Shown in pieces: positions 27,466 to 48,880 of a stretch of 64,000 nt of DNA (position 1 is its first letter; each line of letters opens with the position of its first letter). The stretch comes from Escherichia coli. GTDB lineage: Bacteria; Pseudomonadota; Gammaproteobacteria; Enterobacterales; Enterobacteriaceae. The position numbers and the translations under genes were made by a program. The stretch lies in assembly GCF_030013205.1 (NCBI RefSeq), contig NZ_CP122648.1, one strand, 5' to 3'. Under the pieces are notes generated by a model that made no database searches, was not told the DNA's origin, and saw only the letters and a list, made by a program, of their open reading frames with translations.

Positions 27466-27761
27466 TACCGTTGTCTCTCTTCCAGGTTTACTCCTGATAG
27501 AAAGTCATCGGCACTTGACGGTAATTTCTTACGACCAAAAACCTCTTTGCGTCACATTTTTACAACAATTATGGCAGAGAAGAATAATGCCATTGGAATG
27601 AAGAGAGTAACGAATGATTAAACTGGCTAAACCGAATGACGAAAAATTCTGGAAAACAGCACGCAATTTCGTGAAGTGATTATTTTCGTCCCTAAGGAAA
27701 CCTCATAGGATGCCTGCGGGTGCCTGAGACTTTCTGTTTTCAGGCTAACCGGGAATCAGAA

Positions 27762-27805
27762 AGACGAAGGCCCCGACCGATATTTCTATCAACCGAGGCC
27801 AACGA

Positions 27806-27817
<12 letters not shown>
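27762..27817 (-). ncRNA. sokB: Sok-type antisense RNA of the hokB/mokB type I TA locus (approximate bounds)
   Basis: Minus-strand sigma70-like promoter (TTGCCT-17 bp-TAACAT) inside the mokB 5' region; downstream GC-rich hairpin plus U-rich tract about 55 nt away. Confidence 0.4.
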
Positions 27818-28013
<196 letters not shown>

Positions 28014-28428: not shown

Positions 28429-28493
28429 CTTCCGATGTAGACCCGTATTCTTCGCCTGTACCACGGGTCGGTTTTAGTACAGGCGTTTTCTTT
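28429..28493 (+). ncRNA. rydC: Hfq-dependent small RNA RydC
   Basis: About 64 nt (cttccgatgtagacccgtattcttcgcctgtaccacgggtcggttttagtacaggcgttttctt) ending in a GC-rich hairpin (cgcctgtac/gtacaggcg) plus T-run; sits just downstream of cybB on the opposite strand. Confidence 0.6.
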
Positions 28494-28502
28494 AAATATC
28501 CT

Positions 28503-29033
28503 TCAGGAACGTTTACGCGGCATCATGCGTAGAAGTGTGTTGTCCTTCCAGAAATAGTGGTGTGCCAGTGCAGCCGCAGCGTGCAACCCGATGACAAAAT
28601 ATCCCAGATTCGCCAGCGTCTCATGCCACGACTTTAAGCTATCAACCCGTTCGAAATTGGCCTCTGATGCATAAGGCATCGTCATACCAAACGCAAACCA
28701 CGGGTTACCCCGGTTATACATCATCACCAAACCAATCACTGGCAGCGCAATAAACAGGAGATAGATCACCAAATGTCCCAAATGCGCCAGTCCCGTCATC
28801 ATCGGTTTTGGCTTAGGTATAATCGGCGGGGTTGGGTATTTCAGCCTTAACAAAAGACGAACCACCATCAGCACGAGAATTGATATGCCACAGGAAACAT
28901 GAATCATGTTGATGAGTGGTCGATCGCTACGTGGGAAGAAACCCCGAAACTCCATTGCGCAATACGCTGCGATAACCAGCAAAAAGACCAGCCAGTGAAT
29001 GCTGATTTGTAACCTTGAGTATTTATTTTCCAT
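28503..29033 (-). CDS. cybB: Cytochrome b561
   Basis: ORF 28503..29069; start at the internal Met (MENKYSRLQISIHWLVF...) giving 176 aa; four TM helices with conserved His. Confidence 0.85.
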   Translation of the reverse strand: MENKYSRLQISIHWLVFLLVIAAYCAMEFRGFFPRSDRPLINMIHVSCGISILVLMVVRLLLRLKYPTPPIIPKPKPMMTGLAHLGHLVIYLLFIALPVIGLVMMYNRGNPWFAFGMTMPYASEANFERVDSLKSWHETLANLGYFVIGLHAAAALAHHYFWKDNTLLRMMPRKRS

Positions 29034-29221
29034 AACATTTCCTGCTTTAAAACAATTTTCCGTTAACATAACGAGCTTTTCTTAAAATTTCATTAAATAT
29101 TGTTCACCCGTTTTCAGTACGTTACGTTTCACTGTAAGAATGGAGATTGCCCATCCCACAATCCTGGGCTAAGCCTGGAAAGGATCAATTTTCATCCGAA
29201 CGTTCCTGACAGGAGAAAACC

Positions 29222-30223
29222 ATGAGTAAAGTTGGTATTAACGGTTTTGGTCGTATCGGTCGACTGGTGTTGCGTCGATTACTTGAAGTCAAAAGCAACA
29301 TAGACGTTGTCGCTATTAATGATCTCACTTCCCCAAAAATTCTCGCCTACCTGCTGAAACATGATTCAAACTACGGACCGTTCCCCTGGAGCGTTGATTT
29401 TACGGAAGATTCACTTATCGTTGATGGAAAAAGCATCGCGGTTTACGCCGAAAAAGAGGCTAAAAATATTCCGTGGAAAGCGAAAGGCGCAGAAATCATT
29501 GTCGAATGTACTGGCTTTTATACCTCCGCCGAGAAATCGCAGGCGCATCTTGATGCTGGTGCGAAGAAGGTGTTGATTTCCGCCCCTGCCGGTGAAATGA
29601 AAACCATCGTTTATAACGTCAATGACGACACACTGGATGGCAACGACACCATTGTTTCCGTGGCGTCATGCACCACTAATTGTCTTGCACCGATGGCCAA
29701 AGCCTTGCACGACAGTTTCGGAATAGAAGTCGGCACGATGACGACCATTCATGCCTATACCGGCACTCAGTCACTGGTGGATGGCCCGCGTGGTAAAGAT
29801 CTACGCGCTTCACGTGCAGCGGCAGAAAATATCATTCCCCACACTACGGGGGCGGCAAAAGCCATTGGTCTGGTGATCCCAGAACTGAGCGGCAAACTGA
29901 AAGGTCATGCACAACGCGTACCCGTGAAAACCGGTTCGGTGACTGAACTGGTGTCTATTCTTGGAAAAAAAGTGACTGCCGAAGAGGTGAACAACGCGCT
30001 TAAAAACGCGACAAACAATAACGAGTCATTTGGTTATACCGATGAAGAAATAGTCTCTTCTGATATCATAGGCAGCCATTTCGGGTCGGTGTTTGATGCC
30101 ACGCAAACCGAAATTACCGCCGTGGGCGATTTACAACTGGTGAAAACGGTCGCCTGGTACGATAACGAATATGGCTTCGTCACACAGCTCATTCGCACCC
30201 TCGAAAAATTCGCTAAACTCTGA
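29222..30223 (+). CDS. gapC: Glyceraldehyde-3-phosphate dehydrogenase (intact)
   Basis: 333 aa uninterrupted ORF; NAD-binding GFGRIGR and active-site SCTTNCLAP motifs. Confidence 0.85.
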
Positions 30224-30264: not shown

Positions 30265-31704
30265 TTACGACTGTAAATAAACCACCTGGGTCTGCAGGTA
30301 TTCATGCAGGCCATGTTTGCCATCTGCGCCGCCAATACCGGATTTACGCCATCCGGCGTGGAATCCTTGCATAGCTTCGAAGTTTTCACGGTTGAAGTAA
30401 GTTTCACCAAACTTCAGCCCTTTAATGGCTTTCATCGCGACGTTCAGATTTTGGGTATAGATTGATGAGGTCAGGCCGTAATCACTGTCATTAGCCATTG
30501 CGATAGCATCTTCCAGCGTGTCAAATGCGACCACCGGCAGAACCGGGCCAAAGGTTTCCTCATGCATAATCGACATTTCCTGGCGAACATCCAGCAGCAA
30601 TGTCGGCGGATAATAATATCCTTTCCCCTCTACTGCTTTTCCACCCAACGCCACTCTCGCCCCTTCTTCTACTGCGCGCGCCACTTTTTGCTCGACCCTT
30701 TCCAGCGCCGCGGCGTTAATCAACGGCCCCATCGCAATGTCGTTGCGTTCAACGGGGTTACCAAATTGCACCGCCTGCATCGCTTCACCCAGCCGATTGA
30801 CAAACTGATCATAAATGCCTTTCTGTACATAAACACGTTCTGCACAGTTACACACTTGCCCACTATTAATGACGCGTGAATCAACGATGGCTTTGACTGC
30901 CAGTTCAAGATCGGCATCGTCCATTACGATAGCCGGTGCTTTACCCCCCAGTTCCAGGCACACTTTGGTGATGTTTTTCGCCGCAGTCGCCATAATCTTT
31001 TCACCTGCAGAGACGCTGCCTGTCATACTGACCATTGCGACCTTTGGGTTACCCGCCAGTTCTTGCCCAACGGTTTCACCACGCCCCAGAACAAGGTTAA
31101 ACACGCCGCGCGGAAGGCCTATTTCATCGACGATTTTGGCGAATGCAATCGCATTGTTTGGCGTAAATTCACTGGGTTTAATGACGATGGTATTACCGGT
31201 CAAAAGAGCGGGAGCCATTTTGCGGGCAATGAGGAAGAACGGGAAGTTCCACGGCAGAATGCCGGTAGTCACGCCAAGCGCACGTTTAAACAGAAGAATA
31301 TTTTCTCCTGGACGATCGCTTTGAATAATCTCGCCTTCATAACGCCGTGCCCACTCCGCCATGTAATCGATATAGTCCGCAGTAAAAGCCACTTCGACTT
31401 CAGCCAGCTGCTGGATCTTACCCCCTTCTTCAACAATCAGCGTACTGATTTCACTGGCGCGTTTGCGGATCCCGGCGGAGATTTTGCGCAACCAACTGGC
31501 GCGTTCAATAGCAGGCAACGCTTCCCATTCTGGTTGTGCACGTTCTGCTGCATCGATTGCCTTACGGGCATCCTCGGCCTGACCATCGGGAATGCGGGAA
31601 ATGACAGCCTCTGTAGCAGGGTTTACCACATCAATCCATGCGTCTCCACGCCAGGTAACAAACTGTCCATCAATATACATAGGATGTTGAACGGGTACTG
31701 ACAT
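30265..31704 (-). CDS. aldA: Lactaldehyde dehydrogenase (NAD-dependent aldehyde dehydrogenase)
   Basis: 479 aa; aldehyde dehydrogenase catalytic motifs (ELGGKAP, GQVCNCAE). Confidence 0.9.
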   Translation of the reverse strand: MSVPVQHPMYIDGQFVTWRGDAWIDVVNPATEAVISRIPDGQAEDARKAIDAAERAQPEWEALPAIERASWLRKISAGIRKRASEISTLIVEEGGKIQQLAEVEVAFTADYIDYMAEWARRYEGEIIQSDRPGENILLFKRALGVTTGILPWNFPFFLIARKMAPALLTGNTIVIKPSEFTPNNAIAFAKIVDEIGLPRGVFNLVLGRGETVGQELAGNPKVAMVSMTGSVSAGEKIMATAAKNITKVCLELGGKAPAIVMDDADLELAVKAIVDSRVINSGQVCNCAERVYVQKGIYDQFVNRLGEAMQAVQFGNPVERNDIAMGPLINAAALERVEQKVARAVEEGARVALGGKAVEGKGYYYPPTLLLDVRQEMSIMHEETFGPVLPVVAFDTLEDAIAMANDSDYGLTSSIYTQNLNVAMKAIKGLKFGETYFNRENFEAMQGFHAGWRKSGIGGADGKHGLHEYLQTQVVYLQS

Positions 31705-31900: not shown

Positions 31901-32701
31901 TTAACGTAACGAGCGACTTTCCATAGCCTCGATGAGCACCGCATCGTGTTTCAGCGTTTGCCATGCATGGATGACTTCTGCCGGAAAATCAACGTGAACA
32001 ATAAAATCTCGCCCGCGGGGACCATAGCCATCGCTATCATCGTGTAAACGCGGCAGCTCGCCAGTGAGTAGTGATAGATAACGCTCAACCGGCCATAATC
32101 CTTGTAACTGATTAATAAAGATTACACTGTCTGCGTTATTTCCTAACTGAGGAACTAATCCGGGATAACTCAACCAGCGTGGTGCATCGGGATTGTCCCC
32201 GGTCATACGGCGGAACGTCGCCATCGTGCGCCGCTGCATGGTGGGGTCCTGAACAACGATAGCCGTATGAACTCGTTCTACGGCCTGATTCAATAGCGCG
32301 ATGCTAAAGCGTGCGTTTTCACCGCAGTTTGTTGACTGGTCTTCAATCCAGATTTTTTCATGCGGAATGTGCCAGAACTGATGAGCGATATCCGCCAGGA
32401 TGGTGGCTTCTGCTCTGCCAGTGGTGCGGATAGTGTTGTAGTGCGGATGCTGTGCGATAGCGCTATACAAAAAAGTTGTCGAGTGACCGATACCACCACT
32501 AATCAGTAGAGGAATTTGCTGATCGCGGGCAATCTTACATGCCGCATCGATAGTCGGCATAACCGCATTGCCTGCAAGGATCACGCAATCGGCCTGATAC
32601 GGCATCTCACCGGAGAAATCATCCTGCGCCAGCCACTGTCCGATAACATTTATGGCATCTATGGTTGCCGTCGAAAGCGTCGGAAACGGGGTATTGTTCA
32701 T
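31901..32701 (-). CDS. ydcF: DUF218-domain protein
   Basis: 266 aa ORF. Confidence 0.85.
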
Positions 32702-44852: not shown

Positions 44853-45713
44853 TTATTCTCGCGAAATACCATCCAACGTAGACAACACTTCCTCAGTAAG
44901 ATGCAATTTTTCAGCAGCCATATTCTCCCGTAAATGCGCAACAGAAGACGTCCCTGGGATCAGCAAAATATTCGGTGAACGTTGTAACAGCCACGCCAGC
45001 GCCACCTGCATTGGTGTTGCACCCAGGCTCGCAGCAACATCGGAAAGCGTGGAAGATTGCAGCGGCGTAAAGCCCCCGAGCGGAAAGAACGGCACGTAGG
45101 CAATGCCGTCACGAGCCAAAGCTTCAATCATTGCGTCATCAGCACGATGAGCAATGTTGTATTCGTTCTGCACACAGACGATTTCGGCAATCTTGCGCGC
45201 CTCTGCAACCTGCGTCGGTGTGACGTTGCTCAGGCCAATATGTTTTACCAGGCCTTGTTGTTGCATCTCTGCCAGCACGGTCAGGCTGGCTTCAATCGAT
45301 CCTTCCGCCGGGCCATGACCATCCCCCATCATGACGCGCAGGTTAACCACATCCAGTACGTCCAGGCCGAGATTACGTAGATTATCGTGTACCGCTTTTT
45401 GCAGCTCTGCCGGAGAAAATGCGGGCAACCAGGAAGCATCCTCACCACGCCGTGCACCAATTTTAGTGACAATTGTCAGCTCGTCAGAGTAAGGATGTAG
45501 CGCTTCGCGGATAATCTGATTGGTGACGTGCGGACCATAAAAGTCGCTGGTATCAATATGATTGACGCCCAATGCCAGCGCCTCGCGCAGCACGGTTATA
45601 GCAACGTGGCGATCTCTTGGGGGGCCAAAAACCCCAGGGCCTGCCAGTTGCATCGCGCCATAACCAAGACGGTTAACGGATTTTGTACCGAGAGTAAATG
45701 TGTTGCTGCTCAT
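44853..45713 (-). CDS. ydbC: Aldo-keto reductase (NAD(P)-dependent oxidoreductase)
   Basis: 286 aa; AKR-family fold. Confidence 0.85.
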   Translation of the reverse strand: MSSNTFTLGTKSVNRLGYGAMQLAGPGVFGPPRDRHVAITVLREALALGVNHIDTSDFYGPHVTNQIIREALHPYSDELTIVTKIGARRGEDASWLPAFSPAELQKAVHDNLRNLGLDVLDVVNLRVMMGDGHGPAEGSIEASLTVLAEMQQQGLVKHIGLSNVTPTQVAEARKIAEIVCVQNEYNIAHRADDAMIEALARDGIAYVPFFPLGGFTPLQSSTLSDVAASLGATPMQVALAWLLQRSPNILLIPGTSSVAHLRENMAAEKLHLTEEVLSTLDGISRE

Positions 45714-45867
45714 CGCACCCTGCCCTGTAATAAAACGGATTAAGAAAAATCAGTATAGAAACGAAAAGAGATAAATAATGCGAAGGCGTAAACAAGATTA
45801 CTGGATGAGTTGCTCTATTGTCCTTGAAGACACCAAAACAAAACGCCTAAAGCATCGCATCCGGCAA

Positions 45868-45903
45868 TAAAAAACCGCAACCTGTATCAGCATTGCGGTT
45901 TAG
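45868..45903 (-). terminator. Rho-independent terminator downstream of paaY
   Basis: Hairpin accgcaa-(12 nt)-ttgcggt followed on the minus strand by TTTTTTATT. Confidence 0.6.
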
Positions 45904-45943
45904 GTATCACATGCTAAAAATTAGAACGTCCAGCATCAGGACG

Positions 45944-46534
45944 TTACTGTTTCGGACGCAGATCCTCATCAAATACCAGACGCTGCCTGCCAGGTTCAAC
46001 TTCCCGCAATGGCTCGACTTGATGCAACGTCTGCTTACAGCGTGTCACCAGCACCTGATACTCATGCGTGCCCTGCTTTTTCCATGCCAGCTCCTGCTCA
46101 CTAAGTTCACGAATCGCTTTCGCCGGGCTGCCGACAATCAGGTAATTAGCAGGCATTTCTGCTTTGGCTTTCACAAATGCGGATGCACCCACAATACTGT
46201 TCTCACCAATCACCGCACCGTCCATCACTACCGCATTCATTCCCACTAATGCATTGCGGCGGATAATGCAGCCGTGAAGGATAGCGCTATGACCAATATG
46301 CCCGTCTTCTTCCACGACAGTATCCTGATCGGGAAAACCGTGCATAACGCAATTATCCTGAATGTTCGCGCCATCTTTCACCACGATACGACCAAAATCG
46401 CCACGCAGGCTGGCATTTGGCCCAACGTAAACGCCCTTGCCGAGAATAACATCGCCGATCAATACCGCTGTCGGATGGACAAAACTCTCTTCTGGTACAA
46501 CCGGAGTCAGACCGTCTATCTGGTAAATTGGCAT
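45944..46534 (-). CDS. paaY: Hexapeptide-repeat thioesterase/acyltransferase PaaY
   Basis: 196 aa; gamma-carbonic-anhydrase-like hexapeptide repeats. Confidence 0.9.
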
Positions 46535-47566: not shown

Positions 47567-48880
47567 TCAGGCACCAACAATATTGCGCAGATCAAACACC
47601 CGACACGCCTTGCCTTCTGAACGCGGGATACTGCCACAGTTAACGATCATCACATCGGTAGAGATCCCCACCATCGACTTAATCCGATGGCGCAGCTGGT
47701 GGCATACCTGGCAACGCTGCTCATGCGTCAATGTCAGGCTACTTTCTTTCAACTCCACTTTCACAGAAAGTGAATCAAGATGCCCCCGGCGGTTCACCTC
47801 CAGTTGGTAATGCGGCGATAAATGTTCGAATTTGACAATCTCTTCTTCCAGTTGTGACGGGAAGACATTTACACCGCGAATGATCAACATGTCATCGCTG
47901 CGTCCGCTGATGCGATCCATGCGGCGCATAGTCCGCGCCGTTCCTGGTAACAGTCGGGTTAAATCACGCGTGCGGTAACGAATGACCGGCAATGCTTCTT
48001 TGGTCAGCGTGGTGAATAACAGTTCGCCATGTTCACCATCGGCAAGCGGTGTGCCGTCATGAGGATTAACAATTTCAGGATAGAAATGATCTTCCCAAAT
48101 AGTTGGACCGTCGGTAGTTTCCAGACACTCCATCGCCACCCCCGGCCCCATCACTTCTGACAGGCCATAAATATCCAGTGCGGTGATCCCCAGACGCCGT
48201 TCAATCTCTTTACGCATGGCCTGTGTCCACGGCTCAGCACCAAACACGCCAACCCGCAGCGAGCAACCGCTGGCATCACCGCCCAACTGCCGCTCCAGCT
48301 CTTCAATCAGGTTAAGGCAATAAGATGGCGTAACCATGATCATATCTGGTTGAAAATCGCGGATCAGTTGCGCTTGTTTTTCCGTCTGCCCGCCAGACAT
48401 CGGGATCACCGTAGCGCCCAGACGTTCGGCACCATAGTGCGCGCCCAGCCCACCAGTAAACAGGCCGTAACCATAGGCAACATGAATTTTGTCTTTGGGC
48501 GAGCCCCCTGCCGCACGCAAAGAACGCGCTACAATATTGGCCCAGTTATCAATATCGTTTTGCGTATAACCGACAACTGTCGGTTTACCTGTGGTTCCCG
48601 AAGAAGCATGAATGCGCACCACTTGTTCCATCGGCACGGCAAAGGTGTCAAAGGGATAGTTGTCGCGCAGATCCTGTTTGGTGGTACAGGGAAATTTACG
48701 CAGGTCTGAAAGTTCCCTGAAATCATCAGGATGTACGCCTGCTGCGTCGAATTTGCGCCGATACATCGGGACATTTTCATACGCGTGTTTGAGCGTCCAT
48801 TTCAGACGCTGTGTTTGCAACGCCTGTAACTCATCAACAGACGCGGTTTCAATCGGGTCAAGCTTTGTATTGGTTATCAT
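47567..48880 (-). CDS. paaK: Phenylacetate-CoA ligase
   Basis: ORF 47567..48964; start at internal Met (MITNTKLDPIE...) giving 437 aa; adenylate-forming enzyme motifs (SSGTTGKPT). Confidence 0.9.
   Translation of the reverse strand: MITNTKLDPIETASVDELQALQTQRLKWTLKHAYENVPMYRRKFDAAGVHPDDFRELSDLRKFPCTTKQDLRDNYPFDTFAVPMEQVVRIHASSGTTGKPTVVGYTQNDIDNWANIVARSLRAAGGSPKDKIHVAYGYGLFTGGLGAHYGAERLGATVIPMSGGQTEKQAQLIRDFQPDMIMVTPSYCLNLIEELERQLGGDASGCSLRVGVFGAEPWTQAMRKEIERRLGITALDIYGLSEVMGPGVAMECLETTDGPTIWEDHFYPEIVNPHDGTPLADGEHGELLFTTLTKEALPVIRYRTRDLTRLLPGTARTMRRMDRISGRSDDMLIIRGVNVFPSQLEEEIVKFEHLSPHYQLEVNRRGHLDSLSVKVELKESSLTLTHEQRCQVCHQLRHRIKSMVGISTDVMIVNCGSIPRSEGKACRVFDLRNIVGA

Follow-up and report, generated by a model that had tools for sequence, protein, structure and literature searches.

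Intact gapC, an empty IS609 site and a missing ydbA in an Escherichia coli chromosomal region of very probably porcine lineage

Introduction

Why does a chromosomal stretch of Escherichia coli that follows the gene order of MG1655 carry an intact gapC gene, and neither the insQ element nor the ydbA pseudogene of K-12? The question is raised by 64,000 nucleotides of contig NZ_CP122648.1 (assembly GCF_030013205.1), referred to here as the window, in which gapC, encoding a type I glyceraldehyde-3-phosphate dehydrogenase (GAPDH), occupies positions 29222-30223. A preliminary description of this DNA had taken three features as marks of a non-K-12 background: an uninterrupted gapC of 333 codons, which is a split pseudogene in MG1655; a ydcO-ydcL gap holding only a terminator hairpin where K-12 has insQ; and a ydbC-paaY gap of about 230 bp where K-12 has ydbA interrupted by the insertion sequences (IS) IS2 and IS30. 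It also proposed a BLASTN search against complete E. coli and Shigella genomes, in which a K-12 derivative with identical junctions as best match would have counted against the claim. Here, we conclude that the window is very probably the chromosomal pqqU-to-feaB region of a porcine E. coli lineage, comprising O139:H1 strains and related enterotoxigenic E. coli (ETEC) of pigs, and that its differences from K-12 reflect ordinary lineage history.

Sequence identity and the lineage of the window

The lineage is assigned by overall sequence identity; the three markers by themselves do not settle it. Among 5,426 RefSeq complete E. coli genomes, to which all genome counts below refer, 100% identity over a 4-kb stretch around gapC is confined to pig isolates, namely K_EC180 from Korea, the O139:H1 strains W13-16 and P15-25 and a series of Belgian porcine ETEC, and only 23 genomes reach at least 99%. 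The identity of the O139:H1 strains and of other Belgian porcine ETEC to the window remains 100% over a 25-kb stretch, and positions 1-25000 align with strain ETEC4079 (NZ_CP122643.1) in a single unbroken match at 100%. ETEC4079 is the closest complete genome; a base-by-base comparison of all 64,000 nucleotides with its positions 2655729-2719728 revealed one substitution (C/T at window position 4130) and one single-base homopolymer indel near 48587, where ETEC4079 has TTTT and the window TTT. Both share the junction between an IS91-family element and pqqU, a deletion in ydcV and frameshifts in ydcO and ynbD, whereas paaK is intact in the window and, owing to the extra T, annotated as frameshifted in ETEC4079. 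In addition to near-identity and the ydcO and ynbD frameshifts, the window has the ydbA-less junction and the empty IS609 site of the porcine lineage. K_EC180 differs by lacking window positions 133-12567, a deletion that adjoins its IS91 copy, and by one extra gap. The loci for serotype, sequence type and phylogroup and the virulence genes (Stx2e, F18, enterotoxins) all lie outside the window.

If the layout of K-12 had been given wrongly in that description, the window could come from K-12 or one of its derivatives, and its gene order is indeed colinear with MG1655 over about 61 kb, in inverted orientation relative to the MG1655 numbering. However, BLAST of the window against two K-12 stretches yielded five colinear inverted blocks at 96.9-98.3% identity per block, where more than 99.9% would be expected of a K-12 lineage and where pig isolates reach 100%. 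The blocks are broken at the IS609 site, the ydbA segment, the ydcV deletion and positions 1-121. Moreover, MG1655 has in RefSeq exactly the layout given in the preliminary description, with the gapC pseudogene, IS609 and ydbA::IS2D::IS30C. A K-12 origin is thus already refuted, and the chance that it is nevertheless correct is close to nil. The proposed non-K-12 background is supported by these values, and the best BLASTN matches among complete genomes were pig isolates and not a K-12 derivative.

gapC is an intact GAPDH gene

29222..30223, plus strand: gapC, a 333-residue type I GAPDH encoded by a single, uninterrupted ATG-to-stop open reading frame
29306-29366 and 29936-29996: gapC nt 85-145 and 715-775, the sites of the oligomers that cover the K-12 lesions

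The uninterrupted 333-codon frame that had been described is present, and its product matches TIGR01534, the NCBIfam equivalog for type I GAPDH, over the entire model (1-330 of 330) with 446.8 bits at a cut-off of 367.2. The protein contains the NAD-binding motif GFGRIGR at residue 8, SCTTNC at 149 with Cys150, and HAYT at 177 with His177; hence, the N-terminal G-x-G-x-x-G, the catalytic Cys within S-C-T-T-N-C and a His about 27 residues further on are all in place. In the nearly identical ETEC4079, the NCBI Prokaryotic Genome Annotation Pipeline (PGAP) labels the gene 'gap' without a pseudogene flag. In 331 of 333 residues (99.4%), the protein is identical to E. coli EcGAPDH1 (PDB 7C5F and sister entries), with which it shares the length, the NAD-binding motif, Cys150, His177 and the family TIGR01534. 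The two substitutions lie near residues 262-265 (LKNATNNNE in the window, LKQATTNNE in 7C5F) and concern nothing mechanistic. EcGAPDH1 is an active NAD-dependent GAPDH with a Michaelis constant of 0.73 mM for glyceraldehyde 3-phosphate; activity drops about 3.8 x 10^4-fold in the C150S and about 8 x 10^3-fold in the H177A mutant, and a thioacyl intermediate was trapped on Cys150 in the crystal (PMC8615399). By homology, the thiolate of Cys150 in the window protein would attack C1 of glyceraldehyde 3-phosphate, a hydride would be passed to NAD+, and phosphate attack on the thioester would release 1,3-bisphosphoglycerate.

An intact frame may still be cryptic, with a silent gene or an inactive enzyme in the window strain. 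A cryptic gapC is favoured by the role of GapA as the principal glycolytic GAPDH of E. coli and by the fact that K-12 together with about 20% of the complete genomes manages without the gene. Against this, comparison of the window allele with nine other intact alleles gave a nonsynonymous divergence (dN) of 0.003-0.005 at a synonymous divergence (dS) of 0.14-0.18; the dN/dS of 0.017-0.032 argues that gapC has been retained under long-term purifying selection. The high GAPDH activity of the 99.4%-identical protein likewise argues for a working enzyme. For expression, PMC2949598 refers to environment-specific activity of the gapC promoter, and PMC4447067 lists a ChIP-seq (chromatin immunoprecipitation sequencing) peak of sigma-S RNA polymerase between gapC_1 and cybB in K-12. 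We therefore regard a cryptic gapC as very unlikely and a functional gene as the better reading.

The split pseudogene of MG1655 is confirmed by RefSeq (NC_000913.3), which annotates gapC as pseudogene b4493, formerly gapC_1/gapC_2 (b1416/b1417), with 1001 bp between aldA and cybB. The locus is orthologous to that of the window and has the same neighbours, but it is inactivated by two lesions: an AAA to TAA change at nt 115 (K39*), and a shortening of the A7 run at nt 738-744 to A6, which shifts the frame. In the window, codon 39 reads AAA and the run at nt 738-744 is A7, so that neither K-12 lesion is present. In the alignment, 38 substitutions and one gap (39 differences in 1,002 nt) separate the two sequences, corresponding to 96.1% identity.

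Neither lesion is restricted to K-12. As lower bounds, 1,152 genomes contain the exact K-12 61-mer with K39* and 1,046 the exact 60-mer with the A6 frameshift; a further 3,684 genomes match the K39* 61-mer with one to three mismatches, mostly one (98.4%). The K39* carriers include isolates from pig (ETEC4085), cattle, chicken, duck and humans. The presence of the two oligomers in about 1,050-1,150 genomes shows that the lesions are neither K-12-specific nor laboratory artefacts. In a sample of ten annotated genomes, spaced evenly through the K39*-free part of the ranking, an intact coding sequence of 1002 bp with a protein accession is present in nine, and the tenth has a 2-bp frameshift of its own; intact gapC is accordingly the norm. 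According to PMC2949598, Espinosa-Urgel and Kolter (1998) found that laboratory strains carry mutations in gapC and that the gene is intact in environmental isolates; the study is also listed in PMC1796617. K-12 and a subset of other genomes inherited a dead gapC allele, while the lineage of the window keeps the functional state.

The window allele is relatively distant from other intact alleles, with a dS of 0.14-0.18 compared with a mean of 0.085 over all pairs of the sample. Its differences from K-12 are concentrated at nt 699-794 and may point to an old recombinant segment. An unusually divergent import of the entire gapC region was considered and dropped, as 96.1% identity to K-12 matches the 96.9% of the surrounding sequence.

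The surroundings of gapC are arranged as in K-12:

27718-27869, plus strand: sok antitoxin RNA (sokB, of the hokB/sokB locus)
28429-28492, plus strand: small RNA RydC; like sok, a match at the Rfam gathering threshold, both just left of cybB and gapC as in K-12
28503..29033, minus strand: cybB (cytochrome b561), left of gapC as in K-12; ETEC4079 annotation transferred by offset
29034..29221: divergent cybB-gapC intergenic region with the presumed promoters, delimited by the gene ends
30265..31704, minus strand: aldA (aldehyde dehydrogenase A), right of gapC as in K-12; from the open reading frame and the annotation

The ydcO-ydcL site lacks IS609

15603..16774, plus strand: ydcO (BenE-family transporter), frameshifted; the IS609 target point falls within its stop codon (16772-16774)
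16774..16777, minus strand: empty IS609 target TTAT; in K-12, IS609 lies immediately 3' of TTAT without target duplication
16781..16800, minus strand: intrinsic-terminator hairpin with an 8-bp stem and a 4-nt loop (-16.2 kcal/mol, z -4.32)
16809..17477, minus strand: ydcL (DUF3313 lipoprotein), stop codon at 16809-16811

Convergent ydcO and ydcL are separated by 34 bp (16775-16808), and this gap contains a single hairpin, as had been noted. None of 200 shuffled sequences folds as well; a T run follows the hairpin on the minus strand, downstream of ydcL, and an A run precedes it on the plus strand. The insQ element named for this site in K-12 is also present in RefSeq: MG1655 carries IS609 between ydcL and ydcO, a 1,748-bp element with the tnpA remnant yncK (a pseudogene) and the tnpB-like insQ. 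BLAST breaks and a comparison of the flanks place the K-12 insertion exactly between window positions 16773 and 16774. The flanks read GGCGCTTTTTAT / IS609 / TATCGG in K-12 and GGCGCTTTTTAT / TATCGG in the window; TTAT and both flanks are thus shared, nothing is duplicated, and the element is missing from the window. Insertion without target duplication is expected of the IS200/IS605 family.

The insertion point lies within the stop codon of ydcO (TA/A). YdcO of K-12 is therefore one residue longer, ending R-Y-stop, with the last codon (Tyr) and the stop supplied by the IS end, which also explains why the ydcO coding sequence of MG1655 overlaps the IS609 feature by 4 nt (K-12 stretch L003, 5906-5912). 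In contrast, the window has its own TAA stop, and its frame would end R-stop.

A 400-nt query, covered to at least 80%, detected the empty junction in 2,043 genomes, such as O157:H7 and PMV-1, and the K-12-type ydcL/IS609 junction occurs in 3,267 genomes (60%). The genomes with IS609 at exactly this position presumably descend from one in which the element entered 3' of TTAT, and the site of the window would never have received it. The opposite direction would be a seamless excision, in which peel-and-paste transposition restored the target. Precise excision is established for the IS200/IS605 family from IS608 and ISDra2, the site in the window is free of any scar, and the presence of IS609 here in the majority of complete genomes also fits with a loss. 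Nevertheless, tnpA of the K-12 copy is the pseudogene yncK, which renders this copy unable to mobilise itself, and the 2,043 genomes with an empty site, O157:H7 and PMV-1 among them, are most simply seen as lineages that never gained the element. Excision therefore appears quite improbable, and we prefer a site that never received IS609.

The pdxI-paaY interval has probably lost ydbA

44853..45713, minus strand: pdxI (= ydbC), pyridoxal reductase, start at 45713
45714..45943: pdxI-paaY spacer of 230 bp, in place of the 8.9-kb segment of K-12
45873..45901, minus strand: retained ydbA terminator hairpin, followed by U6 (-14.0 kcal/mol, z -3.08)
45921..45938, minus strand: ydbA 3' remnant, made up of TTAGAACGT at 45921-45929 (stop and two codons) and the 8-mer CAGCATCA at 45931-45938
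45925..45945, minus strand: weak hairpin with a 7-bp stem across the deletion junction (-10.5 kcal/mol, z -2.5)
45944..46534, minus strand: paaY, last gene of the phenylacetate (paa) cluster, stop at 45944

The 230 bp between pdxI and paaY agree with the size given before, and the interruption of ydbA by IS2 and IS30 is found in the RefSeq annotation of MG1655, in which ydbA (b4492) consists of three fragments split by IS2D and IS30C between paaY and pdxI. In total, K-12 has 8.9 kb here, comprising ynbG and ydbA with both elements. In BLAST, the K-12 ydbA segment (stretch L001, 15064-24005) is replaced by 13 nt of the window (45930-45942), whereas 45714-45929 is colinear with the K-12 pdxI-ydbA spacer and the final 9 nt of ydbA. 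Even the 13 nt, which are without a BLAST counterpart in K-12, include the displaced ydbA 8-mer CAGCATCA. The 8,952-nt K-12 segment contains this 8-mer once on the minus strand, at nt 22 counted from the ydbA stop, and the intact ydbA of strain 43905 has it in the same position; in both it lies 11 nt further into ydbA. The statement that neither IS nor ydbA material is present therefore stands for IS2, IS30 and the ydbA gene, but not for the ydbA remnant at 45921-45938, nor for the IS91 end at positions 1-121.

A third arrangement is found in strain 43905 (NZ_CM135146.1), a human urine isolate. In its region 12292-19097 (stretch L006), an intact gene for a BigA/YdbA-type autotransporter of 2,026 residues adjoins pdxI and is directly followed by ydbL, the whole paa-tynA-feaB-feaR block being missing; in the window, this block covers about 18 kb, from 45944 to beyond 64000. 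The pdxI side of 43905 is 99.7% identical to the window, and its 6,081-bp ydbA is retained. Together with the layouts of K-12 and the window, this implies at least three architectures of the pdxI interval within the species.

Compared with K-12 and 43905, the window is without the ydbA gene, its 330-bp upstream region (including ynbG), IS2 and IS30, but keeps the ydbA terminator together with the stop codon and a few nucleotides of the 3' end. The terminator at 45873-45901, which adjoins ydbA with the same sequence in K-12 and 43905, is now located about 40 nt downstream of paaY. The contiguous ydbA-less junction is common (2,032 genomes), and the same junction is present in four diverse genomes, i.e., the window, GPEC606, an O145:H28 strain and 2014C-3061. 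The retained 3' end, the terminator and the common junction are best read as a deletion. By a single old event, whose direction is deduced from the remnant, ydbA would have been removed from about 10-30 nt inside its 3' end up to the base adjoining the paaY stop codon, and its terminator would have been left to serve paaY.

Alternatively, the ydbA-less arrangement could be ancestral, with ydbA and its upstream region inserted in K-12-type lineages. The ydbA-less junctions of the diverse genomes are only 94-96% identical to the window, which suggests that the arrangement is old, and the neighbouring paa-tynA-fea block is itself variably present. Yet the ydbA-less allele retains the ydbA stop, the two final codons, the displaced 8-mer and the ydbA terminator, and if ydbA had been inserted in other lineages, genomes that never received it would not contain its 3' coding end. 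Strain 43905, in which ydbA adjoins pdxI without any paa genes, also argues against an insertion. A degenerate 35-nt pattern of the deletion junction gave no match in the GTDB species representatives, which indicates the polarity in neither direction. An ancestral absence of ydbA remains unlikely, with a small chance of being correct, and a deletion is preferred.

The hairpin across the junction (45925-45945; AACGTCC...GGACGTT) overlaps the paaY stop and is followed by a U-rich stretch; it may be coincidental.

Other lesions in the window

119-1399: truncated pqqU (yncD) region
5361-6785: patD
About 6922-6929: ydcV deletion site, between patD and ydcU
6899-7852: ydcU

Instead of K-12 sequence, positions 1-121 contain the end of an IS91-family element, by which pqqU is truncated; in ETEC4079, the transposase gene of this family ends 65 bp before the start of the window. 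There, the element joins a truncated narZ to the truncated pqqU, and about 15 kb of the K-12 order are missing (yncE, ansP, rhsE and others). K_EC180 has the same IS91 end, with its further deletion reaching up to yncJ, and in ETEC1748, ETEC4070 and ETEC4071 of the same clone, pqqU, ansP and an Rhs gene are still present. The pattern suggests that deletions next to IS91 occurred one after another in a single clone.

A deletion of 673 bp within ydcV, which encodes a permease of an ATP-binding cassette transporter, has an overlap of about 8 nt at the break, and the PGAP annotation of ETEC4079 retains only a 114-bp remnant. With the same query, P15-25 and W13-16 span about 680 bp more and therefore appear to keep ydcV, so that the deletion seems recent within the clone. 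The frameshift in ydcO is due to the loss of one T relative to K-12 (T5 to T4, about 15892) and that in ynbD to the loss of one A (A4 to A3, 38153). PGAP flags both genes as frameshifted in ETEC4079 and K_EC180 as well, and as the losses are common to independent assemblies, they are probably real. In K_EC180, ydcF is annotated as 800 bp and 'frameshifted', while ydcF of the window (31901-32701) is intact; this difference and that in paaK of ETEC4079 are likely long-read errors or very recent mutations.

Weighing the evidence

Several points weigh against a porcine lineage shaped by ordinary history. The window is identical to no genome in the collection. RefSeq over-represents K-12 derivatives, O157:H7 and clinical clones, and the counts do not equal population frequencies. 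Exact oligomers yield lower bounds for inactive gapC, other independent lesions lying outside their reach. Seamless excision of an IS200/IS605 element leaves the same sequence as a site that was never occupied, the ydbA remnant beyond its first 9 nt depends on one 8-mer and a gapped alignment, and GapC activity in the window strain is extrapolated from an active enzyme of 99.4% identity.

Taken together, the three features exclude K-12, as the preliminary description had argued. As evidence of lineage they are weaker than it implied, because each is a widespread polymorphism: the empty IS609 site, the ydbA-less junction and intact gapC are all common, and none is diagnostic of a lineage alone. 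The derived state lies with K-12 at gapC and, as we infer, at the IS609 site, and with the lineage of the window at ydbA.

Conclusions

In this study, we have followed three differences between a porcine E. coli region and K-12. The state of gapC and the absence of IS609 and ydbA are common natural variants that have already been described, and the observation is correct but ordinary. All components were known before: GapC/EcGAPDH1, the gapC pseudogene of K-12, IS609/insQ, the ydbA pseudogene and sequenced porcine genomes with this haplotype. The finding does not add new biology.

The three sites could also be old, independently segregating polymorphisms, with one common allele each in about 20-60% of the complete genomes, of which some are kept at intermediate frequency by selection and not by drift. 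We consider this unlikely, but if it were true, the candidates would be the loss of the surface autotransporter YdbA and a second GAPDH that is lost in host-restricted lineages and kept in those with an environmental phase. Recombination between phylogroups would then have spread the one ydbA-deletion allele.

For the region itself, the lesions, i.e., the truncation of pqqU by IS91, the ydcV deletion and the frameshifts in ydcO and ynbD, are to be judged against the porcine O139:H1/ETEC lineage and not against K-12. The MG1655 labels gapC pseudogene, insQ and ydbA pseudogene describe one lineage and not the species.

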